Sequence record: SRR22947725_1597
DNA: 49,761 nucleotides
Direction: 5' to 3' (one strand)
In this document: piece after piece, positions 1 to 31,491 of the stretch
Numbering within the stretch: the first letter of the stretch is position 1
Layout of the letters: every line of letters begins with the position of its first letter
Made by a program: the position numbers and the translations under genes
Notes under the pieces: generated by a model
Databases searched by the model: none
Told to the model about the DNA's origin: nothing
What the model saw: the letters and a program-made list of their open reading frames with translations, nothing else

Positions 1-1054
1 CCAATCCGCAGCAATGCGTGATGTAAGACGGCTCATAGATATTGCAGCTCCAGCCAAGACAACCATTCTCGTGCTTGGAGCAACCGGTACCGGCAAAGAA
101 CTCGTCGCCCGCAGCATCCATAAATTTTCGGCAAGAAAAGGCGATTTGATCTCGATCAATTGCTCGGCTATTCCAGCTGAATTGTTAGAGTCGGAACTGT
201 TTGGCTATGAAAAAGGGGCTTTTACCGGCGCTGAGAAAACCCGCCAAGGCCGATTTGAGATGGCTTCCGGCGGCACATTATTTCTCGATGAAATCGGTGA
301 TATGCCATTGCCACTGCAAGCAAAGTTGTTGCGGGCGATTGAAACCCGCACCATCCAACGCGTTGGTGGTGGAAAGGATATCCCGATTGACCTTCGGCTT
401 GTTTGCGCAACACATCAAAACATCGAAGCCGATATCGAAGCTGGTAAATTTCGCGCCGATCTATTTTACCGGATCAATGTCTTCCCGATCAAATTACCCG
501 CACTTGTGGAACGCGCGGTTGATATTCCACAAATCGTCGTTGCCTTGAAAAGGGCTATGGAAAACCAAGATAATAATGGCCCCCTTCCCGAATTTGGCGA
601 GAGCGCCTTGCAGGAATTTATGCGTTATCCTTGGCCGGGTAATGTGCGCGAATTGCGCAATGTAATTGAACGCGCCTGCCTATTATATCCGGGAAGCAAG
701 CTTGAGGCAAAGCATGTGCGCAATCATTTGCTGCGTTTGCGAGCGCCCGACCCTGCCGAAGAGCAAGACGCGCTGTGGGCGGCATCAGCCGATCTTGAGC
801 AGGCTGACATTGCCGACAATGAAACTAACAACGATACCCCTTTACCCCACCCAAGCCATTATCGGGACTGGTTCGCATATTTTGACACCATAGACGTAAG
901 GCGGCATCTTCAGGATATTGAGATTATACTGATTGAGGCAGCGTTGGAGAAATCCGATGGTATGATCAGCCATGCAGCAGATGCGTTAAAACTTCGTAGA
1001 ACAACACTTATAGAAAAGATGAAAAAATTCATGATCGAAAAACCGGTATCATGA
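1..1054 (+). CDS. fleQ: Sigma54-dependent enhancer-binding protein, FleQ/FlrA-like flagellar regulator (5' end probably outside window)
   Basis: Walker A GATGTGKE, ESELFG, GAFTGA, LFLDEIGD, WPGNVRELRN, C-terminal HTH (AADALKLRRTTLIEKM). Frame is open upstream of ATG 14 (QSAAMR). Flagellar context. Confidence 0.8.
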   Translation, partial: QSAAMRDVRRLIDIAAPAKTTILVLGATGTGKELVARSIHKFSARKGDLISINCSAIPAELLESELFGYEKGAFTGAEKTRQGRFEMASGGTLFLDEIGDMPLPLQAKLLRAIETRTIQRVGGGKDIPIDLRLVCATHQNIEADIEAGKFRADLFYRINVFPIKLPALVERAVDIPQIVVALKRAMENQDNNGPLPEFGESALQEFMRYPWPGNVRELRNVIERACLLYPGSKLEAKHVRNHLLRLRAPDPAEEQDALWAASADLEQADIADNETNNDTPLPHPSHYRDWFAYFDTIDVRRHLQDIEIILIEAALEKSDGMISHAADALKLRRTTLIEKMKKFMIEKPVS

Positions 1055-1858: not shown

Positions 1859-2233
1859 ATGTTTATACCGCCAGCCACCGAAATAAGCCCAGCTCGACAA
1901 CGTCAGGCTGAAAACGGCCTGAGTGAGGGCCTTCGAGGCACTGCAGCCACTACATCTGCAAGCCTTGTGCCAACCCTGCGCCAAACAGTTAGCGGTGTGG
2001 AGGTAATTCACCCTAGCTCAAACTTGCCTCAAAATTACCATTCAATGCCACAGGCTCGTATTTATCACCCAAAGCAAGCACCATCAGCCGTTATGTCGGA
2101 GAATTTTCTTACAGCTCGAGCAGCGCTTAACCCCGGGTTTATACAAAATGTTGCACAGACAAATATTGCGCGGGTATCTAATTTGTATCGCGACATCCCA
2201 GAGTTCAAAAATGATCTGGATATCCTTGTCTAA
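1859..2233 (+). CDS. Hypothetical protein
   Basis: 124-aa ORF filling the gap between fliS and the giant flagellin; ends LDILV; no family recognised. Confidence 0.5.
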   Translation: MFIPPATEISPARQRQAENGLSEGLRGTAATTSASLVPTLRQTVSGVEVIHPSSNLPQNYHSMPQARIYHPKQAPSAVMSENFLTARAALNPGFIQNVAQTNIARVSNLYRDIPEFKNDLDILV

Positions 2234-2265: not shown

Positions 2266-5200
2266 TTAAATCAGCATATCAATCAAGCTCCGCTTTTGCG
2301 CTGATGCCAACGAAATCATCTCTGACGCCGCACCAGCCAAAATTTGTTGTTTTGCCAGACGAGACGCTTCGCTAGCCACATCAGCATCAAAAATACGGCC
2401 GCGCGCAATTTGTGTTTGCATTAGCACCGCAGACAAACGCTCTACATTAGAGATAAGCTGCACCTTCTTGGCGCCAAGAATGACTTGAGTTTTACTCATC
2501 CGGTCGATCACGGACCCAATTGAAAACATTGCCTCTCGAGCACCAGCAGCGGTGCTAATATCAACTGACGCCAAAACAAGATCCGTATCGTCTGAGTAGT
2601 CATTCAACAGAGTGACACTCAGTCGATCAGTGTATGTTGTTACCAGGTCGGAATGTGTGTAAATGACATCCATGTCAAATGTCGTCTGCCCATTATCAAA
2701 ATCAACATCATACGACGAAATGCTCTGAATGTTGCCCGAAGCATCAATCTCAAAGTAAACGTGATCATTGGCACCATTCACTGTTGCTGTTGCTACTGTA
2801 AAATTGCCACTGTAGCCGTCTGAACTCGCATACTCATTTAGGTGGGACATCAGCGTATTAGCAATAGTAATTGTTTCAGCTTCTCTTACCGAGACATTGG
2901 TTTGCGAAATCTGATAAGTCGTTTCTGTCAGATTCAGTGTAACAGCCTCGGTGTGGATAATTCCATCTGCAGTATACAGAATGTTAAAATTGTATGAGCT
3001 TTGGGTTAAGTATCTCAACTCGCCAGTACTTGTTATATTTCCACTTGCGTCCACACTAAAACTGGCCGCATCAGTTCCAGTTATCGAGTATGTCCCTGCT
3101 GGTGATCCAGGATTTCGAGAGGCGTATGTTGCGGTACTCGTGAATTCACTTGCCGTAATTGTCAACGACTCTGTTTCCTCTGCTGTAACCGTGGCTGTTG
3201 ATGTCAGAGTATCATTAAGCGTCAGCGTGATTGTATCAACAAATGTGTCGCTTCCAGATGCTGCAGTTTCGGTGTAGGACAGGGTGAACACGTAAGTATC
3301 TTGCGTGCTGTAATCGAGCGCCCCGTTTGATTCAATATTGCCATCACTATTAATGGTAAAGCTGGCGCCATCAGTCCCCCCAATCGAGAAGGTGCCATTC
3401 GTACCATCACGCGATGCAAAGCCGCGGATTTTCGTCAGATCATCAAGGTAAATCGTAATCAGGTCAGACTCGTCAGCATTGAATGTCGAGGTGCCTTGCA
3501 ACGCCTCAGTCAGCTCTATGGTAATGGTCTCGCTATGTGTCACACCAAATCCATCCAGGTAATCAAGTGTAAGCGAGTAAGTCGATTTATCAGCCTGAAC
3601 CAGCGACTGCCCGGCTTTGGTGGCAATCTCGCCGGTAGAAGCATTCACATCAAAATAGCTAGCATCAGTGCCAGACAAGCTGAATGTGCCACCCGGTTTC
3701 TCTGTCTGATAGTTTTGCGAACTTGTGAGCTGTGCAATCGGGATGGTTAGGCTTTCGGTTTCCTCGGTGGTGATTGTTGCCGTAGAGGTCAATGTATCGG
3801 TGAGTGTCAGCGAAATGCTCTCGACGAATGTCCGACCATCTGAAGCCAGATAATTAAGATTAAAACTATAGCTTTGTTGGGTGTCATAATCCAATGCGCT
3901 ATTCGATGTTATTTCACCATCGCCATCCACGGTGAACAACAAATGATCACCGCCGCTTGATGACAAGCTGTAGGTGCCCGCATTACGGTCACGACCGGCA
4001 AAATCGCTGATATGGCTTGATGGGGTGATATCAACACCGCCTGACTCGGCAGCGGTTAGTGTCTGCGAAGACTCCAGTGTTTCAGTAATCCTCAGATTGA
4101 CCGTTTCGGTAGAGGTAAGACCACCCAACGTATAAACCACATTGAAGTCATATGTATCATAGTAATTGTAGACATTGCTCGACCCGATACGCAAAGACAC
4201 GCCGGCGGCATTTGTCACAACGCCGGTGTTGCTGATATTGAAACTGCCCGCATTGGTTCCGGTCAAACTATAGGTGCCACCAGTGCCATTGGTAGAGACA
4301 AATGAGGCTGTTTCGGTAAAGTTTGCAGCCGCGATGGTTAACGCATCTGTTTCTTCGGCAGTTATGTTTGTGACTGATGAGGTTGATGTTGGATCAGGAA
4401 TGGTGATGGTCACAGTCTCGGTGAAAACCGTGCCGCCCACGCTATAGAGAACGTCAAAAATGTGGCTCGCTTCGACACTGTAATCAAGCGCCGCATTTGA
4501 GGTTATTTGACCGGTGCTGCTGTTAATGGTGAAATCCAGATAATCATTGGGATCAGCTGAATTTGACGCGAGGCTCCAGCTGCCGCCAGTATTCGCCTGT
4601 GCAAATGTGTAAATTTTCGATAAGGCATTATTGCTTGGTGTGATGGTAACCGGGCTGCCATCAACAACCGAAATGCCGGACTCGGCCTGTAATGCCTGCG
4701 TCAGACTAATGGTGATGGTATCGCTGTGCGTAACCCCGCCAACCGTGTAATCAAGGCTAACTGTGCGAGTTGCCCCCTCCGCCAGATACATGCCGGTTGT
4801 AGACACTAAATTATTGCTGCCATCGAGTGTGAAGTCACCAGCATTGGCTCCGCTTAGCGCAAAACTGCCGCCAGGGTTGCGCGCCACAAAATCAAGTGTG
4901 CCGGCAAGATCAGCAAAGTTGATCGTCAGCTGATCCGTTTCCTCGGCCGTCACCGATGTCGATGATGTCAGCGTGTCCAGCAAATTTAATACAATCGAAT
5001 TGGTATAGGTGTTGGCGCCCACGTTATACAAAACGTCAAAATTATAGACCGACTGTGTATCAAAATCCAAGGCGGCAGAGGTGATTGCACCGGTGCTGGC
5101 ATTGATTGAGAAATTGGCATAGTCAGAACCGGTGTTGGCGATGCTGAATGTCCCGCCGCCATTGGCGCTGACATAGCTGGCCAATTCCGACATATCAGAC

Positions 5201-7119
5201 AGCGCAATGCTTACAGAGTTGGATTCTTGCGCATATGCAGTTGTCGTTGCAAACAATGCCGGGGTCAGATCAACCGTCACCGACTCTTTGTGATATCCCC
5301 CATCTGACCGCGTGTAGGTCACATCAAAGCTATATGAGGTTTTGACAGAACGCAGTAATGCAGATGAGGTAATATCACCTGTTGTCTGGTCAATTGAGAA
5401 ATAACTGGCGTCAGTGCCACTTAGCGTATAGCTGCCAGCGTTGCTGTCACCAGTGGCCGCTGAATCAAGACTAACCAATAATGCCCGTGCGATTGAAACA
5501 GCAGATGATTCTTGTGCTTCCAGCGTTGTTGATGCGGTGGATGTTTTTGAATCACCGCCGGTATCAGTGACGCTGAGATTGCTGACAATCACCTCAGAGC
5601 CAACAATTGTCCCACCATCATTATCAAAGGCACCACTAACAAACACAAATTTGTACAAACCATCAATGCCAGCGCCCAAGGTTTCAGACACTGAGATGGT
5701 ACCCGTGCTACCGCTGGCATTATGCGTATAATCGGTCAACTCGATGGTTGTCCCATCAGATGTGTTCAGCAAATAGGCATAGACATCAGCATAATCGCCG
5801 GCTGACCCAACGCCGGTAAACTCCCAATCAAATGACACAACATCACCAGTGTTCAACGAAATAGCATCTGAACTGATCATTGCCGGGCCATGCACAATAC
5901 CCTTGCTCACGGTTTTGATCTCGTTGGTGGACAAAGTCATGCTGCCTGCCGCTGCACTGTAGTCCCAGTCAATCGAACTGTTGCCAAGGCTGGTGGCAAT
6001 TTGCCCTGTGTTGCCATCTCCAACGCTTCCAACTGGGTCACTATCGGTTGGCGTTGCAAATCCCCCGATCTGTGCAGTCACCGATCCACTGCTGCCTAAC
6101 TCAATCTGAGACTGCACAATATCCCAACCAGAATTAAAAACGCCCCCAGCAAAATTAAGCGTGTCGAGCACCGAGGCGGTTGTTACAGACGCAGTCGAAC
6201 TTGCCGGGATACCAGTCGTGCTTGATGTTGGGTCAGCCCATCTGTCTGATGGATCAGTCACGGCTGATGAAGACAGGTAATCCAGCGCCGCAGATGTTTT
6301 CGTGGCGGTGTTCGTTGGCAATATGGTCCGTGATGACGCACCATATCCAACCGTACTGCCACCGCTTGTTGCGGCGAGCGTTGTGACTGTTGAATTTGCT
6401 GCTGGCACATCAAGGCTTGATGAACCGCTAGCCCTGCTGTCATCAGGCGTATCAAATTCAGATGTCGCTGCGGCGGTTGATGAAGACAAATAATCAAGAA
6501 CAGATGAACCAGACGCGCGGCTTGTAGCCGGCACATCGAACGCTGAAATTGCAGATCCCGTTTGTGCTGGTCGGAGCACCTCAAGAGAGGAACCAGCTGC
6601 CGCCGCAGTTGCCGCAATCGGCGTAGCAGTCTCAACTCCATCAATTGCAATTGAGAGCGTTTCTGACACCGTGTTACCAATCTGCATGGTTGTATCCAGC
6701 GTACCGTCCAGAAGACCAATTTTGTTAAAGTTTGTGCTCTCGGCAATCCTCAGCAATTCAGCATTGAGAGCATTCACCTCTAACTGTGCCGCGGCACGGT
6801 CAGTTACACTCAAATGCCCATTACTGTTTTGCACCGCTAATTCACGTACCCGTTGGGCGATGGCCGATGTTGTCTGCAAGCCAGCGGACGCAGTGTCAAA
6901 CAGGGAGATGGCATCCATTGTATTTTTGATAGCCACAGAAAGCCCAGCAATTTGGCTGTCCATTTTTGAAACAACGGCCATACCAGCACTATCATCAGCG
7001 GCCGAGTTAATGCGCGCGCCCGAAGACAGCCGCTGGACGGCTGTTTCGACAGCATTGCTGGCGGTTAGCAAATTATGCCGACCAACCAAACTTCCAAAAT
7101 TTCTATTCACAGAAATCAA
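2266..7119 (-). CDS. Giant flagellin (1617 aa) with putative jelly-roll domain and ten cadherin-like repeats
   Basis: N-terminal RLSSGARINSAADDSAG, QRVRELAVQ, TNFNKIGLLDG, QIGN. C-terminal GRIFDADVASEASRLAKQQIL. TTG start with AAGGAG RBS 9 nt upstream. Confidence 0.9.
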   Translation of the reverse strand: MISVNRNFGSLVGRHNLLTASNAVETAVQRLSSGARINSAADDSAGMAVVSKMDSQIAGLSVAIKNTMDAISLFDTASAGLQTTSAIAQRVRELAVQNSNGHLSVTDRAAAQLEVNALNAELLRIAESTNFNKIGLLDGTLDTTMQIGNTVSETLSIAIDGVETATPIAATAAAAGSSLEVLRPAQTGSAISAFDVPATSRASGSSVLDYLSSSTAAATSEFDTPDDSRASGSSSLDVPAANSTVTTLAATSGGSTVGYGASSRTILPTNTATKTSAALDYLSSSAVTDPSDRWADPTSSTTGIPASSTASVTTASVLDTLNFAGGVFNSGWDIVQSQIELGSSGSVTAQIGGFATPTDSDPVGSVGDGNTGQIATSLGNSSIDWDYSAAAGSMTLSTNEIKTVSKGIVHGPAMISSDAISLNTGDVVSFDWEFTGVGSAGDYADVYAYLLNTSDGTTIELTDYTHNASGSTGTISVSETLGAGIDGLYKFVFVSGAFDNDGGTIVGSEVIVSNLSVTDTGGDSKTSTASTTLEAQESSAVSIARALLVSLDSAATGDSNAGSYTLSGTDASYFSIDQTTGDITSSALLRSVKTSYSFDVTYTRSDGGYHKESVTVDLTPALFATTTAYAQESNSVSIALSDMSELASYVSANGGGTFSIANTGSDYANFSINASTGAITSAALDFDTQSVYNFDVLYNVGANTYTNSIVLNLLDTLTSSTSVTAEETDQLTINFADLAGTLDFVARNPGGSFALSGANAGDFTLDGSNNLVSTTGMYLAEGATRTVSLDYTVGGVTHSDTITISLTQALQAESGISVVDGSPVTITPSNNALSKIYTFAQANTGGSWSLASNSADPNDYLDFTINSSTGQITSNAALDYSVEASHIFDVLYSVGGTVFTETVTITIPDPTSTSSVTNITAEETDALTIAAANFTETASFVSTNGTGGTYSLTGTNAGSFNISNTGVVTNAAGVSLRIGSSNVYNYYDTYDFNVVYTLGGLTSTETVNLRITETLESSQTLTAAESGGVDITPSSHISDFAGRDRNAGTYSLSSSGGDHLLFTVDGDGEITSNSALDYDTQQSYSFNLNYLASDGRTFVESISLTLTDTLTSTATITTEETESLTIPIAQLTSSQNYQTEKPGGTFSLSGTDASYFDVNASTGEIATKAGQSLVQADKSTYSLTLDYLDGFGVTHSETITIELTEALQGTSTFNADESDLITIYLDDLTKIRGFASRDGTNGTFSIGGTDGASFTINSDGNIESNGALDYSTQDTYVFTLSYTETAASGSDTFVDTITLTLNDTLTSTATVTAEETESLTITASEFTSTATYASRNPGSPAGTYSITGTDAASFSVDASGNITSTGELRYLTQSSYNFNILYTADGIIHTEAVTLNLTETTYQISQTNVSVREAETITIANTLMSHLNEYASSDGYSGNFTVATATVNGANDHVYFEIDASGNIQSISSYDVDFDNGQTTFDMDVIYTHSDLVTTYTDRLSVTLLNDYSDDTDLVLASVDISTAAGAREAMFSIGSVIDRMSKTQVILGAKKVQLISNVERLSAVLMQTQIARGRIFDADVASEASRLAKQQILAGAASEMISLASAQKRSLIDMLI
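2600..5535 (-). repeat. Ten ~95-105 aa cadherin-like repeats in the giant flagellin (approximate bounds)
   Basis: Recurring xEExxxxTI...G(T/S)(Y/F)SLSGTDAxxFxI(N/D)xxTGxIT...LD(Y/F)xxxxxY motifs. Confidence 0.8.
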
Positions 7120-7141
7120 GACGCATTACTCCTTATACGGA

Positions 7142-7169
7142 ATAACGACTTAACTATCATTTATATAGT
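7142..7169 (-). promoter_or_regulatory. Putative sigma28 (FliA) promoter of giant flagellin
   Basis: Minus strand ACTATA-N14-GTCGTTAT; -10 matches the motif at other flagellin genes, -35 has one mismatch. Confidence 0.55.
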
Positions 7170-7360
7170 TGATATTGAGATATTTTTTGCCTTATTTGAC
7201 TGCTGCCTTGCCAGGCAAATATTTCATTTTTTCAGCCAATTTTGGTCTCTATTAGTTTTCAAAAGCCAAGGCATCTGATACGCATTCATTCTTAAAAAAA
7301 ATTCAATCATGTGGTTAAATACAAACTATTGATTCTCATTTTAAACTTTGTTGATTCCTC

Positions 7361-16408: not shown

Positions 16409-16897
16409 CTATAGAAAATCAAGCGGGCTAAGGTTTTGGTTTGTGAGCTTTTGCAAAACCTCACTATCTCCCGCATCTGCCAATTTCCAGCCGACAGGCG
16501 CAAACTCAACAACCTGGTTGCGGAGCGCATAAACATAGGCTTTAAATGCCTTAACCGCAGCATCAGCGCTATGTTCGCGGCCTTTTACAGGCTCGTCGGC
16601 AGACCCAAACAGCCCTTTTAGCTTGCGCGGCTTGTTTGGTTGTTCAAAGCTAACTCTGTTATAACAAAAGCCCATTACCATCGGCGCTGCGGCTTCTCCA
16701 GCGTTAAGCTCGTCCAAAAATCGCAAAATCGAGCTAATCACGTCCGCAATCTCTTCGGCAGTGATGGGCTGATAAAATTCAGACAAAGTTGCCGCATAAC
16801 CGCGCGCAACCGTGTTCAGATCTAACTGCCGGCTCAGATAGTCTTCGGCGGCGGCAGCGCACGCCGTTTCAAATATCCATTTTGGACAAAAAGACAT
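16409..16897 (-). CDS. Hypothetical protein
   Basis: 162-aa ORF with protein-like composition filling the fliD-flagellin gap. Confidence 0.65.
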   Translation of the reverse strand: MSFCPKWIFETACAAAAEDYLSRQLDLNTVARGYAATLSEFYQPITAEEIADVISSILRFLDELNAGEAAAPMVMGFCYNRVSFEQPNKPRKLKGLFGSADEPVKGREHSADAAVKAFKAYVYALRNQVVEFAPVGWKLADAGDSEVLQKLTNQNLSPLDFL

Positions 16898-16998: not shown

Positions 16999-17024
16999 TA
17001 AATAATTTTTCCTGATGTCGTTCT
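16999..17024 (+). promoter_or_regulatory. Putative sigma28 promoter
   Basis: TAAA-N14-GTCGTTCT. Confidence 0.65.
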
Positions 17025-17079: not shown

Positions 17080-17898
17080 ATGAACTCTATCGCGACAAAC
17101 GTAGTAGCAGTCCGTGTAGATTACCACGGCAAGAAAAACAATAAAGTTGAGACCGAGGCTTTCACGCGCCTATCCAGCGGTAGGCGCATCACCAACGCAT
17201 CAGATGATGCGGCCGGCTTATTCATTGCTGGCCGCATGAAAGCGCAGATCTCTGGCTTGGAACGCGCTATTCACAATTCATCCGATGGCGTTAGCTTGGT
17301 TAACACAACGGAAGCCAATCTCAACGAAATTCGTAATATGGCACTACGGATGCGCGAAATTGCAGTGCAGATGGCAAACGGTATCTATGTAGACAACCCA
17401 GATCGAGGTTTTGCACAAATTGAAATTGATCAGCTTGTGCAGCAGATAGATCTGATTGCTCAGAATGCCAATTTTAACGGTGTTGCACTTCTTGACGGGA
17501 CCATGCAAAACGTAGGTATCCAAACTGGGCCAACTGCGAATGAGCGCCCTAGCATCTTTTTTAAAGACAACAGTTCATCCGGCCTTGGCGTTGACACTGT
17601 TGACGTCAGCACCCAAGCCAATGCAAAAACTGCGATGGTGACGCTTGAAACAGCGCTGACCTCCATTTCAGATGAATTATCCCGGGCTGGCGCATACGAA
17701 AACCGGTTTAATCATACAATTTCGGTGCTGGAACTGACGACTAAAGCGACAAAGATTGCCCGCGGCCGCATTATGGATGCCGACATAGCAGAAGAGTCAA
17801 CAAAGTTATCCAAAGCACAAGTGTTGTCACAAGCCAACACTGCAATGCTGGCTCAGGCCAATCAGTCCATGAGTAGATTATTGTCACTCTTTAACTAA
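17080..17898 (+). CDS. fliC: Minimal flagellin (272 aa)
   Basis: RLSSGRRITNASDDAAGL, RMREIAVQMANG, GRIMDADIAEE; GGAG RBS. Confidence 0.95.
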   Translation: MNSIATNVVAVRVDYHGKKNNKVETEAFTRLSSGRRITNASDDAAGLFIAGRMKAQISGLERAIHNSSDGVSLVNTTEANLNEIRNMALRMREIAVQMANGIYVDNPDRGFAQIEIDQLVQQIDLIAQNANFNGVALLDGTMQNVGIQTGPTANERPSIFFKDNSSSGLGVDTVDVSTQANAKTAMVTLETALTSISDELSRAGAYENRFNHTISVLELTTKATKIARGRIMDADIAEESTKLSKAQVLSQANTAMLAQANQSMSRLLSLFN

Positions 17899-18017
17899 CT
17901 AAAAATCTAAATTTTCCAAACTAAAAAGCGCATTCAGACGCAGTTTAGAGATGGGAAAATTGCGCCTAGAGAAAATTTTAAGATATTGTTTTTTATCATT
18001 TTTTTTTATTTTTTTAC

Positions 18018-18043
18018 TAAATATTTTTGACCTGTGTCGTTAA
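18018..18043 (+). promoter_or_regulatory. Putative sigma28 promoter
   Basis: TAAA-N14-GTCGTTAA. Confidence 0.7.
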
Positions 18044-18092
18044 AAATAAAGTCCGAGAGGACCGGCTATTCACTAAGTAAGGAGACTTAAAA

Positions 18093-18911
18093 ATGACTGC
18101 CATTAATACAAATGTTGGGGCTTTGAATGCCCGCCTTTACACACTTAACGCCAACCGCTCTCAAGAGACAGCTATGGAACGCTTGTCATCAGGCAGCCGA
18201 GTTAACAGTGCAGCGGATGATGCCGCTGGCTTGGCCGTTGCTGGTAAGATGGAGTCGCAACTTCGCGGCATCAATATGGCAATCCGTAACAACCAAGATG
18301 GCGTCGGCCTCATTCAAACTGCAGAGTCAGGTCTGAACGAAATCCGTAACATGACCTTGCGTATTCGTGAACTGGCTGTGCAGATGGCCAACGGTATCTA
18401 TGAGAACACACCAGATCGCGCGAACGCACAGTTGGAGGTAGCAGCTCTCCTCGAGCAGGTCGACCTGATTGCAGATAACACCAAGTTTAACGACGTAGCA
18501 CTACTTAACGGTACTTTTTCAGCTGTTTCAATCCAAGCTGGTAATACAACTGCTGAGACGATTTCCTTAACTTTTGCAGATTTGGGACAATCTGGCCTTT
18601 CGATCAATGGTGCTTCAATTGCAACGCAAGCAAGCGCAACAACTGTGATTGGGACCATGGATGCTGCATTGCAAACCATTTCTCAGGAGCAAGCTACGAT
18701 GGGTTCATTGCAAAACCGCCTGAATTACTCAATCTCTAATTTGAGCAGAGCCAGCGTAATGACAGAGCAGGCTTTGGGCCGCATCATGGATGCTGACTTT
18801 GCTGCAGAGTCAACCGCCTTATCGAAATCTCAGATTTTGAACCAGGCAGCGACATCAATGCTGGCTCAAGCAAACCAGTCAAAGCAAATGTTGCTTCAGT
18901 TAATCCAGTAG
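18093..18911 (+). CDS. fliC: Minimal flagellin (272 aa)
   Basis: INTNVGAL, RLSSGSRVNSAADDAAGLA, GRIMDADFAAE; AAGGAG RBS. Confidence 0.97.
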   Translation: MTAINTNVGALNARLYTLNANRSQETAMERLSSGSRVNSAADDAAGLAVAGKMESQLRGINMAIRNNQDGVGLIQTAESGLNEIRNMTLRIRELAVQMANGIYENTPDRANAQLEVAALLEQVDLIADNTKFNDVALLNGTFSAVSIQAGNTTAETISLTFADLGQSGLSINGASIATQASATTVIGTMDAALQTISQEQATMGSLQNRLNYSISNLSRASVMTEQALGRIMDADFAAESTALSKSQILNQAATSMLAQANQSKQMLLQLIQ

Positions 18912-18920
18912 TAGCCGAAA

Positions 18921-18948
18921 AGCCGGGGCAGGATTACTTGCCCCGGCT
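18921..18948 (+). terminator. GC-rich stem-loop after flagellin (terminator or stabiliser)
   Basis: AGCCGGGGCA-N8-TGCCCCGGCT; no U-tract follows. Confidence 0.6.
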
Positions 18949-18997
18949 CCACTAAAAGCAAAAATGATGCCAAAATCATTTTTTTTCATTTTTTTTT

Positions 18998-19023
18998 TAA
19001 AAAAAGTTTTTCTCGGTCGTTCT
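18998..19023 (+). promoter_or_regulatory. Putative sigma28 promoter
   Basis: TAAA-N14-GTCGTTCT. Confidence 0.65.
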
Positions 19024-19055
19024 ACTAATCGGAATGATTTGGGAAAGGTAAGTTT

Positions 19056-19874
19056 ATGACTTCTATTAACACAAATGTCGGTGCCCTGAACGCTCGTGCC
19101 AGCGCGGTACGAGCAACAGGCAAAATGGAAACCTCGATGGAACGGCTCTCATCGGGGTTACGTATCAACAGCGCGGCAGATGATGCGGCGGGTTTGGCTG
19201 TGGCGGGTAAGATGGAATCGCAGCTTCGCGGTATCAATATGTCCATCCGGAATTCGCAGGATGGTGTCGGTCTCATCCAGACTGGCGAGTCCGGTTTGAA
19301 TGAAATTCGCAACATGGTTCTCCGTATTCGCGAACTCGCCGTTCAGATGGCCAACGGTATTTATGAAAACACTCCAGACCGCGCAAATGCCCAGTTAGAG
19401 GTTGCTGCACTCCTTGAACAAGTTGATCTGATTGCAGAGAACACTAAGTTCAACGATGTGGCTCTTCTCGATGGGAATTTTTCAGGTGTGACCATTCAAG
19501 CCGGTAACACGACTGCTGAAACGATTTCGATTACTTTCGCCGATGTCGGACAGACTGGCCTATCGATAAATGGAGCCTCGATTGCGACGCAAGCTAGTGC
19601 AACAACTGTTATTGGGACTATGGACTCAGCATTGCAGACAATTGCCAGCGAGCAAGCAACAATGGGTTCTTTGATCAACAGACTTAACTTCTCAGTCTCG
19701 AACCTAAGTAAAGCCTCCGTTATGACTGAACAGGCCATTGGCCGCGTCATGGATGCAGATTTTGCTGCTGAGACAACGCAATTGTCAAAGCAGCAAATTC
19801 TAAACCAAGCAGCCACATCTATGTTGGCCCAAGCAAATCAGTCGAAGCAATCTATCCTCGCCCTACTCCAATAG
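19056..19874 (+). CDS. fliC: Minimal flagellin (272 aa)
   Basis: INTNVGAL, RLSSGLRINSAADDAAGLA, GRVMDADFAAE. Confidence 0.97.
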   Translation: MTSINTNVGALNARASAVRATGKMETSMERLSSGLRINSAADDAAGLAVAGKMESQLRGINMSIRNSQDGVGLIQTGESGLNEIRNMVLRIRELAVQMANGIYENTPDRANAQLEVAALLEQVDLIAENTKFNDVALLDGNFSGVTIQAGNTTAETISITFADVGQTGLSINGASIATQASATTVIGTMDSALQTIASEQATMGSLINRLNFSVSNLSKASVMTEQAIGRVMDADFAAETTQLSKQQILNQAATSMLAQANQSKQSILALLQ

Positions 19875-20023: not shown

Positions 20024-21868
20024 ATGCAAGCCAATTCAGATGACAAGCGGCGAAGGATCATTGATGGTCTAGATCATATTGATCTTCATCTTCACAATAT
20101 CAATATCGACAATAGTGAGGATAAAGCCCGGCAACTGATGGATTATCGGCGGCAGCTTCTGGCAGATCTTACATCACTTCCGCCAGTCAATGTAGCCTCT
20201 AGGCATTACCCGGGCTGTTTAAAATACGAGCCCACTACGGTGGTAGCTGAACAGGTAAAAAAATGGCGCACTCGAGTAATTCAATTTGAACCGGATCAGC
20301 GCTCATTTAAAAATCCTAACTTTTGCGACCAGTTTTTAGACAGTATTCTGCCAGAAACATGGAATTTTAGTTCCGATGTGATGGTAATCTCTGCTCCACT
20401 GTCAAATACGATAATTTCAAAGGCAATCCTTCGTAATCAAAGCCATATTGTGATCTTTGACTATCACAAGTGTATCGATGAGCAAGCAATTACTCGCCCA
20501 TCAAACGCCAATGTAGTTCTTTGCCAAACAATCTCAGATGTAGAAATCGCCTTTGCAAAGCTGCAAACGCCTGCCGAACGAGTCATAACGGTTCCCTGCT
20601 CGATTGACGCAAAATTTTTGACAAAAACAAAAGACCGCCTGTCTGAAGCAATCCAAAAAGGAAAAATAAACCGTATCGCCAACACAGTCACTGCCAATAG
20701 GTTTGGCGCACCATGGTCGAAGAACCTCTTACACAACCTACCCATCATAGCCAACGCGCCTAACATACACCAACTCACGGTTAAGGGCGTGAAAGATGCC
20801 GTTATCGTGGCATCAGGGCCTTCATTAAATAGAAATATTCATACACTTGCTAAAATTCAAGATCGAGTTTTTATAGTTGCTGCTTTGCGGTCTCTTAAAA
20901 TACTAAATGACGCGAACATCAAACCAGATCTAGTTATTCAGTTGGATGCAGAAGACGATAATGTCGCTAGAGAGTTTTCAACCAAACTAGACATTGAAAT
21001 CGAAAACTTCTTGGTTGATCTTACCATCAACCCGTGGTTTCTAAAATCAAATGCAAAAAACTTAATCTGGTCTTATCCATCATTATTTGACGACATCAGC
21101 AGACGGTTTGGCGTTGCCCCCACACCTTTTGACGCGCCTAGTGTCGCAATATACGGTCTGATGCTTTGCTACCAACTTGGTTTTGAGTCTTTATGTTTTA
21201 TTGGACAAGACTTAGCTTCATCTGAAAGATTGCAATATGCGAGAGGAGCAACATCGCTGCTACCTGCCCACAACGATATAACAACATTTGATATCGAAAT
21301 TGATGGCTTCTACGGCAACAAGGTGATGACCAGAGGTGCATACCATATTCAGCTTTTGCGCTGTGAGCATGTCGCCACAGAACTCAATTTAAAAGCACCG
21401 CAGTTACGGCTTTTTAATGCAACAGAGGGTGGTGCCTATATCAACGGGTTTAAACACATAAGCCTGTCAGAGTTCGCATCCACCCGAGACCTCAATAGCA
21501 GTCGTCATGTTAAGCAACTGATGTGGGAGTCAGGCACACAAATTAAACCAACGCATCTTGCGGATTATCTGGCTCATATAAGTGATACGATGGACGAGAT
21601 AACCACCATTGCAAATGCAATTATCAAGCTGGATAAAGCACCGAAAAAAAGTCTGGATGAAGATAGAGCGCTCGCTGAATTGGTCGAAAAATTCCGATTC
21701 TTAAATAGCACGACCTCTCTGCTACAAGTCGCGATGCAGGAGGAAATTTCATCTGTTATTGGCACGTCAAGCGACAACTGTCGTGACTCTAGCTTATCAG
21801 GTTTTTTTAGAGAAGTCCTTCGGCATACTGAAACTTTAAAATCAATTGCCCTGATGCCGAGTAAGTAA
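20024..21868 (+). CDS. Motility-associated factor (Maf/DUF115) flagellin glycosyltransferase
   Basis: AVIVASGPSL, IKPDLVIQLD, FIGQDLA, FNATEGGAYINGF; adjacent to flagellins. Confidence 0.85.
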   Translation: MQANSDDKRRRIIDGLDHIDLHLHNINIDNSEDKARQLMDYRRQLLADLTSLPPVNVASRHYPGCLKYEPTTVVAEQVKKWRTRVIQFEPDQRSFKNPNFCDQFLDSILPETWNFSSDVMVISAPLSNTIISKAILRNQSHIVIFDYHKCIDEQAITRPSNANVVLCQTISDVEIAFAKLQTPAERVITVPCSIDAKFLTKTKDRLSEAIQKGKINRIANTVTANRFGAPWSKNLLHNLPIIANAPNIHQLTVKGVKDAVIVASGPSLNRNIHTLAKIQDRVFIVAALRSLKILNDANIKPDLVIQLDAEDDNVAREFSTKLDIEIENFLVDLTINPWFLKSNAKNLIWSYPSLFDDISRRFGVAPTPFDAPSVAIYGLMLCYQLGFESLCFIGQDLASSERLQYARGATSLLPAHNDITTFDIEIDGFYGNKVMTRGAYHIQLLRCEHVATELNLKAPQLRLFNATEGGAYINGFKHISLSEFASTRDLNSSRHVKQLMWESGTQIKPTHLADYLAHISDTMDEITTIANAIIKLDKAPKKSLDEDRALAELVEKFRFLNSTTSLLQVAMQEEISSVIGTSSDNCRDSSLSGFFREVLRHTETLKSIALMPSK

Positions 21869-21869
21869 C

Positions 21870-23525
21870 ATGGCATCTTTTTGGCAAAAAAATCCAGACA
21901 TGAATGGTTTTGATAATCAAGAAAATGCGCTGCAAAACATCATTTTTAGTGATAATGTTTACACGCTCCATAAAACAAAACTCGAACACGCCGACGCACT
22001 GAACAGCCAAAATAAGCTGGAAAAGGCCTATAGAATTTACAAAGCCATACTTGAAGAGGCTCCGAGGCATCCTGGCGCTCTATTCGGCATAGGTCTAATC
22101 CTTGAAAAACAACAGAAATTTGACCTAGCGCTCCAATTTCTGTCCAAAGCAATCGAGTCCGACCCAAGCAAAATTCAAGCCCTATTGACGCGTGGTCGCA
22201 TTTTCCGCCTGCAAGGCATGTCTGAGAATGCCATTTCTGATTTTACGGAGGTCATCTCAAATCAGTCAAATAATTCTGAGGCACTGATCGCGCGAGGCAT
22301 AACATTTGGCCAAACCAGCCAGGTCGATGCTGCAATTGATGATTTTAGTTCAGCGGTCAGGATTAATCCGAACTGTGCTGAAGCATTTTTCAACCGGGGT
22401 GTAGCTTATGAAAAACTGCACCAATTCAAGTCTGCGATTAAAGACTATTCAATTGCAATAAAGCTTAATCCACATGACTATAGAGCATATAACAATAGAG
22501 GCGTTGCAAGACGTGAAACAAAATGTTTTGGCGACGCGCTCGAGGATTTTGACAAATGCATTGAACTTAACCCTGAATTTGCTGAGGGGTATTACAACAA
22601 ATCGCTCACCTTATTGTCAGTTGGCAATTTAAAAGAGGGTTTTAGACTTTATGAATACCGTTGGAAGACTAAGCATTTTCAATCACAGGTGAGATATTTT
22701 TCACAACCATTGTGGCTGGGCGATGAGGATCTTAACGGCAAAACAATTCTTCTTCACAGTGAACAAGGTCTTGGCGATAGCATTCAATACTGCCGGTACT
22801 TGAATTTTTTTACCCAAATGGGATGCAAAGTTCTCTTGGAAGTTGAAGATTCCTTGCATTCATTAATGCACACCTTTTTGCCAAAAAACCAAATTTATTC
22901 AAAAGGCACTCTGTTGGATGAATTTGATTATCACTGTCCACTGATGAGTCTCCCACTGGCCTTTGAAAAAACTGTGTCACCCACACGTTGGCAAACCCCA
23001 TATATCAAAGTTTCTGAAAAAACTAAATCTGAGTGGTTTAACAAGCTTGGAGCAAAAACAAAACCGAGGGTTGGGATATGCTGGCGAGGAAATAAGGAAC
23101 ACCCGAAAGACTGGCGGCGAAGTATAAATATCAGAGATGTTGTCGACAAATTACCGACGACAGCTGAATTGGTTTGTTTGCAGAATGACGTTTCCGAGGC
23201 AGAGCAGCGTATTTTCAAGAATACAAGTCTAATATGCCTTAACAGATACATGGGAGACTTTGCATCCACGGCAGGTTTGTGCGCAAACCTTGATGCTGTA
23301 GTCACAGTTGATACCAGTATTGGCCATCTCGCTGGAGCAATTGGTGTTCCCACACACCTAGTATTGGGTTACCCATGTGATTTTAGGTGGCTCAATAATG
23401 GTACATCGACACCGTGGTACGAAAATCATTACCTTCACAGGGCTACTCAAAAAATTAAAATGCCCAATTTATTTTCGCGAACACTCGAAGTGGTTTGCAA
23501 CGACCTCTCCAAGAACAATGCTTAA
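21870..23525 (+). CDS. TPR-repeat glycosyltransferase (GT9-like C-terminus)
   Basis: Multiple TPRs (AYNNRG), YEYRW, EQGLGD, PLMSLP, VDTSIGHLAGAIG, TPWY. Confidence 0.88.
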   Translation: MASFWQKNPDMNGFDNQENALQNIIFSDNVYTLHKTKLEHADALNSQNKLEKAYRIYKAILEEAPRHPGALFGIGLILEKQQKFDLALQFLSKAIESDPSKIQALLTRGRIFRLQGMSENAISDFTEVISNQSNNSEALIARGITFGQTSQVDAAIDDFSSAVRINPNCAEAFFNRGVAYEKLHQFKSAIKDYSIAIKLNPHDYRAYNNRGVARRETKCFGDALEDFDKCIELNPEFAEGYYNKSLTLLSVGNLKEGFRLYEYRWKTKHFQSQVRYFSQPLWLGDEDLNGKTILLHSEQGLGDSIQYCRYLNFFTQMGCKVLLEVEDSLHSLMHTFLPKNQIYSKGTLLDEFDYHCPLMSLPLAFEKTVSPTRWQTPYIKVSEKTKSEWFNKLGAKTKPRVGICWRGNKEHPKDWRRSINIRDVVDKLPTTAELVCLQNDVSEAEQRIFKNTSLICLNRYMGDFASTAGLCANLDAVVTVDTSIGHLAGAIGVPTHLVLGYPCDFRWLNNGTSTPWYENHYLHRATQKIKMPNLFSRTLEVVCNDLSKNNA

Positions 23526-23581
23526 CGACTGCGTAAACGGGCAAGTATTTCTCACAGAATTTTAAATTAACGGGTAAGCAA

Positions 23582-24595
23582 ATGACAACAAACCGCGCAT
23601 TAAAATCAGAACGACTGGCAGTGATATACCATTATTTTGAACTGGATGATGAATACAGAGATAATTTTTTATTTTTCTTAAACATCGGCATAAATAACCA
23701 TGCACATTACTTCATATACATATCTGGCACCTGTTCAGTAAACCTGCCTGTATTGCCGAACGTAGAGGTCACATACATAGAGAATAAGAATTTTGACTTT
23801 GGAGCTCAATGCGAATTTAGCAAGCGGGATGATTGCTTGGATTATGACGCATATATCTTTATTAATTCGTCTATGAGGGGGCCATTCTTACCTGAATACC
23901 ATGCTAAGGCTTGGCAATCGGTCTATACGGAAAAGCTAAAAGAAAAAGTTGTACTTGTTGGCAGTTCAATAAATCTATTACCGGAAAACTCTGATGCCTC
24001 CCAACAATTTGCGAGGGCGACCAAGTATGCTGCGCCCTTTATACATGTGCAGACAACCGCCTATGCAATGTCTTGTGAAGCCTACAGGATAATGCATAAC
24101 CAAGGTTTCTATGATGTCAGTCATGCGCTGACAAAACTCGGCACTATTTGCTACTACGAACTAGGGCTGTCCCAAGAGCTATTGAATAAAGGGTATAAGA
24201 TTGCTTCACTCCTCCCTACGTACAACGAATTTTGTATAGAAAAAAGAACGCTCGATTATAAGAATAGCTTAAAAAATGGCGACCCCTCACACAAGTCAGT
24301 ATTTTACGGTCGAAGTGCATCGCCGTTCGAGATCCTTTTTGTAAAAACCAAAAGACGCGCATTAAGCAAAGTCGAATTAAATTCATATACATTTACTGCA
24401 CTAGCAATTGCGAAACGAAACTTTGGAATCTCCTGCGATGGTTTGGCGCTTATGAGGCAAGCACACAACGCAGCACTGTCAGGTAATAAGGCTGATGAGA
24501 AAATAGACATAAGTTTAGCTGACATTCAAAAAATGCTTACCCAAATCAAACACAATATGCCAGATGTCGCGTTACAACTTAAAAAAATATTGTGA
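23582..24595 (+). CDS. Putative glycan biosynthesis protein (RgpF-like motifs)
   Basis: ENKNFDFGA, YIFINSSMRGPF, HVQT, YELGLSQ, PFEILFVK. Confidence 0.6.
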   Translation: MTTNRALKSERLAVIYHYFELDDEYRDNFLFFLNIGINNHAHYFIYISGTCSVNLPVLPNVEVTYIENKNFDFGAQCEFSKRDDCLDYDAYIFINSSMRGPFLPEYHAKAWQSVYTEKLKEKVVLVGSSINLLPENSDASQQFARATKYAAPFIHVQTTAYAMSCEAYRIMHNQGFYDVSHALTKLGTICYYELGLSQELLNKGYKIASLLPTYNEFCIEKRTLDYKNSLKNGDPSHKSVFYGRSASPFEILFVKTKRRALSKVELNSYTFTALAIAKRNFGISCDGLALMRQAHNAALSGNKADEKIDISLADIQKMLTQIKHNMPDVALQLKKIL

Positions 24596-25160
24596 GATAT
24601 TTAGCCAAAAATGCCAATTTAATCGTTCAACTTACTGTACCTAACGTTCACCAAAGAAGTGCCCGACGCCAAGACTTCAGGAACAATCGTCTAATCACCA
24701 GTCTGCAGCAATTGAACAATTTGTTGTTATCACGCCAGCAGCGAGTGTCTGAGTGGGTGACCCATATCGGACATAAGCAAGGTAATTCTGCAAACACCTG
24801 ACTTGTTTGAGTTTCTAGAATTGGCCAAGTTGATTGACATTCACATCGTGCACCTGACCCTTGCTGTTGGCCAATCTACGCATATTGCTTTGGTCACGAC
24901 TCTCGATTTCCGCTGCTTTGCAAATGAAACCAGCTCTCCTTTAGACCCCAGCCGTCAACCTTACCACAAAGCGTCCAATCAGGAGATATTAGACCTATTT
25001 ATAGTTGCGAGCAGAAATGTCTTTGACAAAGACAAACAACAGAAATTCAACATGGCCAACTCTTTCATGGAACAGCAGTAACTAAAATCCCACGATTGTC
25101 GCCACTTAGATTTTTCCATGAAATTATCTGGTAAATCCATAAATCAAATTATTCCACGAT

Positions 25161-25176
25161 TGGTATAAATATTGCG
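25161..25176 (+). promoter_or_regulatory. Putative sigma54 promoter
   Basis: TGGTAT-AAATA-TTGCG (GG-N10-GC). Confidence 0.5.
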
Positions 25177-25246
25177 TGTTAGGCAGTTACAGATGTTTTA
25201 GAAATCTAGTGCCAATCTTTAGGCAAAAATACCAGAAGGATTTAAG

Positions 25247-26095: not shown

Positions 26096-26141
26096 ATACA
26101 AAAATTCATCAAAAAGGTCCTACGCCAAACAAACCCAGAGG

Positions 26142-26912: not shown

Positions 26913-26949
26913 AAAGGTAATTTTTTTGAACTAAAGCTGGAGGGTACGC

Positions 26950-28062: not shown

Positions 28063-28068
28063 TTTCCA

Positions 28069-30264: not shown

Positions 30265-30338
30265 GTTTTTTCCTTGTCTCGATCAGTAAAGATTCAAATT
30301 TCTTCATGAGCGCCCTTTGCCCAAATTACATAAACAAC

Positions 30339-31088: not shown

Positions 31089-31253
31089 ATCGACGATCCA
31101 TTATGAAGCGCCTAAAACCTTGTTAGGTGGCGCTCTCCCATCAATTTTTGTTTAAAACGCCAGGCCACCTGCACACAACCAATTGGTTACCGCATTCATG
31201 ACTGGTTTTTCACTGGAAGCGTTCGGCCAAGCGCGTTTACACACGGAACTTTT

Positions 31254-31269
31254 TGCAAAAATTATGCCA
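31254..31269 (-). promoter_or_regulatory. Sigma54 promoter of GT2-fusion-pyruvyltransferase operon
   Basis: Minus strand TGGCAT-AATTT-TTGCA. Confidence 0.65.
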
Positions 31270-31491
31270 GAAATTTAATATCAGGGTCTATCACAACAAG
31301 AGCGGTTACCCAATTACCACAGACAAATCACATGTGAATTTTTTGAGACATTTATTACATCCCATTAAATTTTAGTGGCCATAGGGAGCAAAACGAAAAT
31401 AAAACGAGAGCGTTAAGACAATTCGTCGTTCAGCGATTAAATAAAACTTTTTAAAAGCATACGGATTACCCCTATCGGGATCATTCAAGAG

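Follow-up and report, generated by a model that had tools for sequence, protein, structure and literature searches.

Does the flagellum of a planktonic marine bacterium, or the channel through which its subunits leave the cell, also bind and digest extracellular targets? The question is raised by sequence record SRR22947725_1597, a stretch of 49,761 nucleotides (referred to below as the window) that constitutes a single long flagellar region. Between the genes of the export chaperone FliS (1399–1800) and the filament cap FliD (14695–16368) lie three genes that an earlier note, made from the letters alone, had described as flagellin-framed proteins with cargo: cadherin repeats in gene 1 (1617 residues), a metzincin protease in gene 2 (816 residues), and repeated β-rich modules together with a jelly roll in gene 3 (877 residues). 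The position of the trio and the boundaries and lengths of its open reading frames (ORFs) proved exact, and all three are intact, without internal stops. Profile and fold comparisons indicate that all three are flagellin-derived, and their cargo looks functional, comprising invariant catalytic residues, intact repeats and a predicted jelly roll of CBM4/MAM type. The flagellum or its export channel thus probably serves to bind and digest targets outside the cell as well. The frame is canonical in gene 1 and at the C-terminus of gene 2, whereas the N-terminus of gene 2 is remodelled and only remotely related, and gene 3 has diverged at both ends.

A Giant Flagellin with Cadherin-Like Repeats

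Both ends of gene 1 are recognized by Pfam: Flagellin_N (PF00669) matches with 111 bits (cut-off 26.6, E 4.5e-32) and Flagellin_C with 37 bits (cut-off 23, E 4.2e-9), and the first 140 residues are 43–48% identical to the other flagellins of the window. Giant flagellins are defined by PF00669 and a length of more than 1000 residues, and gene 1 has both; by domain content it is a complete, canonical giant flagellin. The cadherin repeats were borne out. Cadherin (PF00028) reaches 78 bits as a whole-protein sum against a cut-off of 28.8, with no stretch passing singly, and an iterated hidden Markov model (HMM) resolves ten tandem repeats of ~95 residues each (residues 559–1522), whose consensus F.I...TG.I.S...LDY....Y.F is a cadherin-type pattern. 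Compared with the sequences of the PDB, the cadherin region gave no match at E 0.01. The 170-residue linker ahead of the jelly roll is the least conserved part of the gene, at 79–80% identity to relatives. A search for relatives of gene 1 gave 271 matches, and among the 120 listed, 55 pair Cadherin with a flagellin end domain; about 25 of the matches listed are orthologues of ~1615 residues at 68–90% identity, and others extend up to 2,531 residues.

A Serralysin-Type Protease with a Flagellin C-Terminus

In gene 2, Pfam identifies Peptidase_M10, M10_C (PF08548), the RTX family HemolysinCabind (PF00353) and Flagellin_C (57 bits). Among PDB sequences the protein matches serralysin 1g9k (E 1e-23), Foldseek returns 25 serralysin entries (E 1e-15 to 1e-17), and a comparison of the model with alkaline protease 1akl by VIA yields Z 23.2 over 324 residues at 30% identity, covering residues 236–681 including the β-roll. 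The NCBIfam model Zn_serralysin gives E 1.6e-38 and 133 bits, below its 500-bit cut-off, and matches to matrix metalloproteases (MMPs) are found as well. The traits of serralysins (M10B) are all present, namely the HExxHxxGxxH zinc site, the Met-turn with its tyrosine, the catalytic fold, and the RTX β-roll, and the metzincin residues H381, E382, H385, H391, M418 and Y420 are unchanged throughout the 41 aligned homologues. The metzincin is of the serralysin type.

Serralysins such as AprA, PrtC and the Serratia protease have a type I secretion signal at the C-terminus, and their genes usually stand together with those of an ABC/MFP exporter and an inhibitor. Gene 2 shares their catalytic domain, their RTX β-roll and all metzincin residues. 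It differs from them in its extra 185-residue N-domain, in its flagellar surroundings, where no ABC/MFP exporter family occurs among the scanned ORFs of the window, and above all in its C-terminus, at which flagellin CD1/CD0 takes the place of the type I secretion tail. The last 100 residues are 53% identical to the 272-residue flagellin at 18093, hhalign aligns them to flagellin C with E 6e-33, and the CD1/CD0 part as a whole is 38–52% identical to the 272-residue flagellins of the window, a range equal to that among these flagellins themselves.

The N-domain, predicted by AF2 to be a compact α/β domain (pLDDT 75–89), is more remote. Residues 55–134 align collinearly with residues 58–142 of flagellin N (hhalign, 80% probability, E 1.3e-5), and two members of the family match the flagellin-N HMM directly (E 6.9e-6 and domain E 2.5e-4); when the family alignment was compared with three flagellins alone, hhalign matched the C-terminus only. 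ESM features point to flagellin clusters (0.89) and serve as a lead. The domain is rare, with 49 matches in 1.84e9 proteins, and Peptidase_M10 accompanied it in 10 of 10 long matches scanned. At its end, H183 and C188-P-H-C191 are invariant in 41 of 41 aligned sequences. The CPHC motif is the same tetrapeptide as in the active site of DsbA, and its placement resembles that of the cysteine switch at the end of the MMP pro-domain, which makes a switch a candidate role.

In metagenomes this protease type has relatives by the hundred: the search for relatives of gene 2 gave 490 matches, and among the 120 listed, 116 carry PF00413 and 110 carry PF00700. In the six that contain PF00669 (for example P0178, 1025 residues), a canonical Flagellin_N is placed ahead of a gene-2-type N-domain. 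The sub-family formed by P0178, P0177, P0185, P0188 and P0336, with the loci L030–L032, accordingly holds two flagellin-N-like modules in tandem, which suggests that a canonical N-frame was fused onto a gene-2-type gene or was lost in most lineages.

A Probable, Strongly Diverged Jelly-Roll Flagellin

Gene 3 is invisible to family models: neither Pfam nor NCBIfam gave anything above noise, the flagellin end domains of Pfam gave no match (Flagellin_N not even at E 10), and the best hit of the family profile in the PDB had E 0.34. Against three flagellins alone hhalign remained weak (9% probability), and a 19-sequence flagellin profile was needed to align residues 219–300 with residues 105–181 of flagellin N, that is ND1b and the hairpin, at 96–97% probability and E 1e-9 to 4e-11. 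Moreover, the C-terminus aligns with the C-terminal profile of the gene 2 family (92% probability, E 5e-7). The AlphaFold model (pLDDT 64, pTM 0.36) contains helices at residues 53–105, 219–243, 788–836 and 840–870. In an unbiased VIA search with this model, 16 of the 16 top rows were flagellins, FlgL or hook-associated proteins at Z 14.6–11.5, the best row (Z 14.6, rmsd 2.5 Å, 159 residues) spanning model residues 49–838; these scores have to be read against a pLDDT of 52–82 for the terminal helices and against the Z of 13–14 that helical bundles can reach by chance. The top Foldseek match is 9au6, a flagellin with large outer domains (E 1e-4), and ESM features likewise lead to flagellin clusters. 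Profile and fold comparison together indicate that gene 3 is a strongly diverged flagellin.

As the earlier note had anticipated, gene 3 holds repeated β modules and a jelly roll common to gene 1. A 66-residue module occurs four times (residues 139–204, 545–610, 617–682 and 690–755), its first copy being inserted between the two N-terminal D1 helices; elsewhere in the window, FlgK contains two copies and the 682-residue flagellin a partial one. The two jelly rolls are 36% identical (E 4e-22, gene 3 residues 323–495). Foldseek relates that of gene 3 to CBM4, MAM, Eph ligand-binding and gingipain adhesin domains, and VIA to MAM domains with Z 9.6 and 9.3.

The family comprises 80 relatives, 55 of which are 876–879 residues long at 64–99% identity. 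When species genomes were searched with the alignment of gene 3, 26 loci emerged, two of them with a full-length relative (L001, from a metagenome-assembled genome (MAG) labelled Proteobacteria, and L002, from an uncultured alphaproteobacterium of the SAR116 cluster). In 13 of the 24 partial loci the match falls within an ORF whose two ends are flagellin N and C, 12 of these 13 ORFs being 455–500 residues long, and the hosts are labelled alpha-, beta- and gammaproteobacterial. On this evidence flagellins commonly carry the jelly roll as an outer domain.

Conservation and Distribution

The earlier note had named synteny across genomes, purifying selection and expression as points to check. The gene order from the sigma-54 activator to the 272-residue flagellins is identical in L001 and L002, where amino acid identities to the window amount to 86 and 84% for gene 1, 83 and 70% for gene 2, 81 and 76% for gene 3, 80 and 80% for FliS, 81 and 75% for FliD, and 84 and 78% for the CLC channel. 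Among the 192 species genomes of the order of G001, gene 3 is full-length in two; in a third (G118) a contig end truncates it, and the fragment lies beside the gene 2 orthologue in divergent orientation. The N-domain and protease of gene 2 occur together in 21 of the 192. Questions that span a whole genome were put to the relatives G001, G002 and G118.

The ratio of nonsynonymous to synonymous substitution rates (dN/dS; Nei–Gojobori with Jukes–Cantor correction) is 0.05–0.11 for the trio compared with 0.04–0.12 for fliS, fliD, the CLC gene and the flagellin at 17080, both ranges being rough as dS is near saturation (proportion of synonymous differences, pS, 0.52–0.74). The uncorrected ratio pN/pS lies at 0.08–0.34 in every sub-region. 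As judged from these values, purifying selection acts on the trio as it does on the neighbouring genes. DNA runs from nine marine, seawater, estuary and aquatic metagenome studies, one of which may be the source of the window itself, contain 0.66–0.81 of the sampled words of the stretch. RNA-library contigs of three studies between them match portions of genes 1, 2 and 3 (gene 1 in X14 and X17, gene 2 in X14 and X15, gene 3 in X14, X16 and X17), although carry-over of DNA is possible in such libraries.

Sister genomes hold the same cargo in full frames. G110, G115 and G108 encode a 1015–1016-residue protein that consists of a canonical flagellin N (60–69% identical to the window flagellin at 19056), a gene-2-like N-domain, the protease, RTX, and a canonical flagellin C; in all three a canonical jelly-roll flagellin of 498–521 residues adjoins it, inside ordinary flagellin arrays. 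In G078, a canonical 1355-residue flagellin with gene-1-like parts stands beside a 986-residue protein of the gene 2 type, which has the flagellin C-terminus only. Because the sister genomes hold the protease/jelly-roll pair in fully canonical frames, the pair predates the lineage of the window and the versions found here are derived.

Promoter Motifs and Gene Layout

The motif G(C/T)CGTT(A/C)(A/T/C), which the earlier note had seen as a shared sigma-28 signal, is located upstream of all six genes in question, namely the trio and the three 272-residue flagellins. A TAAA element 14–15 nt further upstream is present at genes 2 and 3 and at the flagellin at 18093. Within the window GYCGTTAW occurs 14 times versus 4.75 expected, a count reached in 0 of 100 shuffles, and TAAA-N14-16-GYCGWTAW 4 times versus 0.16 expected. 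The sigma-28 consensus is TAAAG-N13-16-GCCGATAA; this sequence has 0 exact matches in the window, and the local variant was used instead. In L001 and L002 the motifs, ribosome-binding sites and start codons of the trio are kept while the remaining spacer DNA has diverged, and the block from the gene 1 motif through its TTG start is preserved. FliA scores above the curated cut-off in 3 of 3 trio-bearing genomes. In four other species, the protease-flagellin genes have the full motif in three cases and the −10 element alone in the fourth; three of the seven plain flagellin genes of these species also have it (all three in L030), and it is absent from their jelly-roll flagellin genes (0 of 3, with one −10-like match 150 nt upstream) and from the cadherin flagellin of L033.

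TTG is the start codon of genes 1 and 2 in 3 of 3 genomes, and ATG that of gene 3 and of the minimal flagellins; the conserved TTG starts would fit a minor subunit and are a hint rather than proof. Sigma-54-like sites (TGGCAY-N5-TTGCW, at most one mismatch) number 21 in the window versus 7.8 expected (0 of 100 shuffles reach 21) and precede fliS, fliD, the Maf-like gene and several glycosylation genes. Polar flagella of Vibrio and Pseudomonas contain multiple flagellins under a hierarchy of sigma-54 and sigma-28. The window resembles this type in its sigma-54 activator, its sigma-54 sites and sigma-28-type motifs, as well as in the FliA of its relatives, and differs in the −10 element G(C/T)CGTT and in its alphaproteobacterial host. 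Seven flagellin-family genes are served by these two promoter types, sigma-54 for the 682-residue flagellin and sigma-28-type for the rest. The host is a marine SAR116-type alphaproteobacterium, and the trio belongs to the late, sigma-28-type class of its polar-flagellum regulon.

Table 1. Positions of genes, domains and promoter elements in the window (aa, residues).
Feature	Position	Strand	Basis or remark
Sigma-54 activator gene	14–1054		
96-aa ORF	1112–1402	(−)	no family match
fliS, flagellin export chaperone	1399–1800	(−)	Pfam FliS, E 6.9e-21
124-aa ORF	1859–2233	(+)	no family match
Gene 1, giant cadherin flagellin, 1617 aa	2266–7119	(−)	TTG start
Gene 1, C-terminal D1/D0 frame	2266–2550	(−)	Pfam Flagellin_C
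Gene 1, ten cadherin-like repeats, residues 546–1523	2551–5484	(−)	Pfam, iterated HMM
Gene 1, jelly-roll domain, about residues 331–545	5485–6129	(−)	likeness to gene 3
Gene 1, Ser/Thr/Ala-rich linker, residues 161–330	6130–6639	(−)	S+T+A = 53%
Gene 1, N-terminal D0/D1 frame, residues 1–160	6640–7119	(−)	Pfam Flagellin_N
−10 motif GTCGTTAT upstream of gene 1	7142–7149	(−)	kept in L001 and L002
Gene 2, serralysin-type protease with flagellin C-terminus, 816 aa	7361–9811	(−)	TTG start
Gene 2, flagellin CD1/CD0, residues 710–816	7364–7684	(−)	identity, hhalign
Gene 2, RTX β-roll and linker, about residues 521–690	7742–8251	(−)	Pfam, VIA
Gene 2, metzincin catalytic domain, about residues 235–520	8252–9109	(−)	PDB match, fold, invariant residues
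Gene 2, zinc site HEIGHAVGLSH	8639–8671	(−)	Met-turn SVMGY
Gene 2, CPHC motif, residues 188–191	9239–9250	(−)	invariant columns, 41 sequences
Gene 2, remodelled flagellin-N-like domain, residues 1–185	9257–9811	(−)	AF2, hhalign
Gene 2, sigma-28-type promoter TAAA-N15-GCCGTTAT	9843–9869 (−10 at 9843–9850)	(−)	
Sigma-54-like site TGGCAC-N5-TTGC, 270 nt upstream of gene 3	9875–9890	(+)	largely kept in L001 and L002
Gene 3, sigma-28-type promoter TAAA-N15-GCCGTTAA	10113–10139 (−10 at 10132–10139)	(+)	
Gene 3, strongly diverged jelly-roll flagellin, 877 aa	10162–12795	(+)	
Gene 3, ND1a-like helix, residues 53–105	10318–10476	(+)	AF2, weak hhalign
Gene 3, β module 1, residues 139–204	10576–10773	(+)	AF2 pLDDT 86–89
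Gene 3, ND1b helix and β hairpin, residues 219–290	10816–11031	(+)	hhalign
Gene 3, jelly-roll domain, residues 323–506	11128–11679	(+)	Foldseek, VIA
Gene 3, β modules 2–4, residues 545–755	11794–12426	(+)	AF2 pLDDT 83–94
Gene 3, C-terminal helices, CD1/CD0-like, residues 788–870	12523–12771	(+)	AF2, hhalign
CLC chloride channel gene with CBS domain	12809–14593	(−)	
fliD, filament cap	14695–16368	(+)	Pfam FliD_N, FliD_C
162-aa ORF	16409–16897	(−)	no family match
−10 motifs of the 272-aa flagellins	17017–17024, 18036–18043, 19016–19023		
Three 272-aa flagellins	17080–17898, 18093–18911, 19056–19874	(+)	Pfam
Glycosylation-type island	20024–37906		GC 0.40–0.42
682-aa flagellin	38090–40138	(−)	
Two sigma-54-type sites of the 682-aa flagellin, TGGCAC-N5-TTGC	40304–40319, 40122–40137	(−)	
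flgK, 1727 aa	41693–46876	(−)	

The 272-residue flagellins consist of the Pfam domains N (4–141) and C (187–271) and, as described earlier, are minimal, without an outer domain. RNA-library contigs join different genes of this group within 17838–19800 (for example 18027 to 18980 and 17865 to 18210); these joints are most likely chimeric assemblies or stem from related strains with other copy arrangements. Besides the trio, the interval between fliS and fliD holds the 124-residue ORF and the CLC gene, which keeps its place between gene 3 and fliD in L001 and L002 (78–84% identity). The small ORFs of 96, 124 and 162 residues are also kept there, at 63–82% identity and with dN/dS of about 0.09–0.12 where measurable; the first overlaps the end of fliS, and a FliT-like chaperone would be a guess. 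A gene for FlgL is present between the 682-residue flagellin and flgK, and flgI, flgH and flgG are present past flgK. The giant FlgK contains a Flagellin_IN motif and carries its two 66-residue modules at residues 897–964 and 989–1052; an orthologue exists in G110 (L030). The second sigma-54-type site of the 682-residue flagellin overlaps the mechanically assigned TTG start, so that the true start is probably ~19 codons downstream; Pfam Flagellin_N begins at residue 23. The glycosylation-type island encodes a Maf/MptE-like protein, two TPR-GT9 proteins, GT2 and GT4 transferases, a pyruvyl transferase, a nitroreductase-GT2 fusion and rmlA–D-like genes.

Export, Incorporation or Secretion

The earlier note had interpreted the cluster as a functionalised flagellum. 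Flagellin ancestry, functional-looking cargo, late motifs, selection and RNA-library contigs sustain this interpretation, whereas the sequence does not decide between filament decoration and secretion. We lean, by a slight preponderance of the evidence, towards the reading that the three genes encode conserved flagellin derivatives that are exported by the flagellar type III channel, gene 1 being co-polymerised and genes 2 and 3 being held in the filament or released. We infer the export route, the incorporation, the stoichiometry, and the ligands and substrates from sequence, as follows. Export through the flagellar type III channel fits best because a flagellin-type C-terminus, the flagellar locus, late promoter motifs and selection are common to the trio. 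The proteins most likely leave the cell unfolded and would then fold outside, guided by their flagellin-type C-terminal helices, the region bound by FliS in ordinary flagellins. For type I secretion substrates, folding of RTX repeats in calcium outside the cell is established; such folding would suit a substrate that travels unfolded, and the β-roll of gene 2 could form in the calcium of seawater.

As its frame is canonical, co-polymerisation is the simplest reading for gene 1, which most likely enters the filament as a rare subunit among the 272-residue flagellins and would present a jelly-roll binding module carried by ten cadherin-like repeats. Given a length of 4.5 nm per cadherin domain, the repeats would measure roughly 45 nm (10 × 4.5 nm) if extended. 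Two geometries are conceivable: either the flexible linker extends outward, with the jelly roll at its far end and the rod of cadherin repeats leading back, or the jelly roll sits near the core with the repeats as a loop. In gene 2, flagellin CD1/CD0 would replace the type I tail, and the protease may be loosely held in the filament after export or released; its kept C-frame and remodelled N-frame argue for a retained chaperone and export function. Gene 3 may descend from the ~500-residue jelly-roll flagellins that stand beside protease flagellins, having gained four β modules and diverged at both ends, and would therefore be a specialised surface or released component rather than a bulk filament subunit. 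Its two ends are conserved in a form private to this family, which likewise points to a specialised role. A complex prediction of FliS with gene 3 residues 785–877 gave a score of 0.01, obtained without controls or a custom alignment, and speaks neither for nor against binding.

Several observations weigh against this reading. The N-terminus of gene 2 has no Pfam Flagellin_N match even at E 10, and PF00669 occurs in just 6 of the 120 listed relatives. In the model of gene 2 the N-domain is unpaired with the C-terminal helix (helix pLDDT 43–56), and the top 50 VIA rows contain no flagellin, which for an 816-residue model with a low-confidence C-terminal helix is not evidence of absence. For gene 3, the alignments of residues 53–111 with flagellin 48–107 (ND1a, E 0.0026) and of residues 780–856 with flagellin CD1 (E 0.002) are weak beside cross controls of 0.036 and 0.051, in pairwise identity its ends are no closer to flagellins than shuffled sequences are, and the chance level of Z for helical bundles applies. 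At the usual distance from its −10 motif gene 1 has no good TAAA −35, and gene 3 is preceded by a candidate sigma-54-like site in addition to its sigma-28-type promoter. Finally, saturation of dS, DNA carry-over and a single in-frame TAA at about codon 84 (about position 9390 of L001) in the L001 gene 2 orthologue (G002:C40:54510-56972, from a low-coverage MAG) detract from the data on conservation and expression.

The remodelled and diverged frames of genes 2 and 3 weaken ordinary co-polymerisation for these two and make secretion through the flagellar channel at least as likely for both. The flagellin-like FlaC of Campylobacter and the phospholipase YplA of Yersinia are secreted by the flagellar type III apparatus, and by analogy genes 2 and 3, possibly also gene 1, could be soluble exoproteins that pass through this apparatus with the help of FliS and never enter the filament. 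The well-kept CD1/CD0 next to a remodelled N-half in gene 2, the occurrence of Flagellin_C without Flagellin_N in 104 of its 120 listed relatives, and the noise-level ends of gene 3 in pairwise comparison would all be expected from such proteins. We nevertheless regard this explanation, taken for the trio as a whole, as the less likely one, considering that relatives in the order carry the same protease and jelly roll in canonical frames within flagellin arrays, that the frame of gene 1 is canonical, that the model of gene 3 still forms a predicted D1-like bundle, and that the gluzincin flagellinolysin is localised on filaments according to the accessible part of its description (PMC5595980). 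A further explanation, in which at least one trio protein makes up the bulk of a separate thick filament or segment under particular conditions rather than sparsely decorating a 272-residue scaffold, draws on the giant flagellins of Bermanella, which in the accessible text build whole thick filaments (PMC6248924), and on the seven flagellin-family genes with two promoter types; it appears improbable in view of the conserved TTG starts of genes 1 and 2, the diverged frames of genes 2 and 3, and the sterically extreme load that ten cadherin repeats on every subunit would presumably impose.

An even slimmer chance is given to gene 3 being an accessory axial protein (junction-like, cap-proximal or sheath-like, and related to FlgL) instead of a flagellin in function or a cargo carrier. 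FlgL and hook-associated proteins do appear among its top VIA rows (Z 11.5–12.2), the 66-residue module recurs in the giant FlgK and partially in the 682-residue flagellin, and fliD is near; yet its closest relatives outside its own family are canonical jelly-roll flagellins, its positional counterpart in related genomes is the canonical 498–521-residue flagellin, and a normal flgL is present. That the trio consists of decaying paralogues without present function is barely credible and already contradicted by the conservation data: the TAA in L001 is its one support, while the gene 2 orthologues of G001 and G118 have no in-frame stop, all three genes are intact in the window, dN/dS is low throughout each gene, the catalytic residues show no variation, synteny is kept, and there are 80 length-conserved relatives of gene 3 and 490 of gene 2. 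Returning to the preferred reading of exported flagellin derivatives, its most elaborate form would be a multifunctional extracellular tool of an abundant marine SAR116 lineage: a smooth filament of 272-residue flagellins that bears sparse cadherin/lectin-like stalks of ~45 nm, serralysin subunits and remodelled jelly-roll subunits, the flagellin N-half of gene 2 having become a pro-domain-like module with H..CPHC as a cysteine or redox switch; in this full form we consider it unlikely. If true, the enzymatic flagellum would have been invented independently a second time, and an exchange of the C-terminus would have diverted a type I secretion substrate to the flagellar type III channel.

Relation to Known Flagellins

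Proteolytic and giant flagellins as such are already known. Flagellinolysin or FlaMP (MEROPS M101; FliA(H) of Clostridium haemolyticum, also in Hylemonella gracilis) is described, in the accessible portions of two reports, as a zinc metalloprotease within a flagellin, which in C. haemolyticum is found on the filament surface as the second most abundant filament protein (PMC5595980, PMC7643111). Gene 2, known here from its sequence, is likewise a zinc metalloprotease in a flagellin-type protein encoded beside ordinary flagellins. Flagellinolysin, as these portions present it, is a gluzincin (HExxH with a distal Glu, M9-collagenase-like) in a complete flagellin frame (PMC5595980, PMC7643111), whereas gene 2 is a metzincin (HExxHxxGxxH, Met-turn with Tyr, RTX) with a remodelled N-terminus and an invariant CPHC, in which the M101 site is absent. 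By its active-site signature gene 2 is an independent fusion of a different protease clan. The giant flagellins of Bermanella marisrubri and Oleibacter marinus have inserts made of duplicated DE regions and a novel insert without likeness to enzymes, and in marine gammaproteobacteria the giant flagellin is the building block of the filament, as far as the accessible text goes (PMC6248924). Gene 1 has in common with them a length above 1000 residues, canonical D0/D1, a huge surface-exposed insert and a marine host; it differs in that the insert comprises a linker, a jelly roll and ten cadherin-like repeats and in that it coexists with three minimal flagellins and one of 682 residues.

A 2017 paper counts 61 domain types in the hypervariable regions of flagellins, and its top-ten Table 1 is without M10 or cadherin (PMC5595980); a survey of flagellin diversity, in its accessible text, mentions enzymatic flagellins just by citing the 2017 work (PMC7018530). 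Metzincin, serralysin or cadherin flagellins, and such flagellins from SAR116, were not found in those parts of the full-text literature that are accessible, and Supplementary Table 1 of PMC5595980 may list M10 or cadherin. Public annotation labels some relatives as "flagellin".

Conclusion

In the accessible literature, enzymatic flagella so far derive from one protease family, the gluzincin flagellinolysins, and giant flagellins have no recognizable functional domain. To these the locus adds a second protease clan and a classical adhesin repeat in flagellin-type proteins that are encoded side by side and conserved in a free-living marine group. Across genes 1, 2 and 3, in this order, the canonical frame is lost step by step, and together with the full-frame relatives in sister genomes this gradation provides a natural series by which the needs of export may be separated from those of polymerisation. 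If these proteins sit on the flagellum or exit through it, the motility organelles of planktonic bacteria would share in the attachment to particles and in the degradation of protein.

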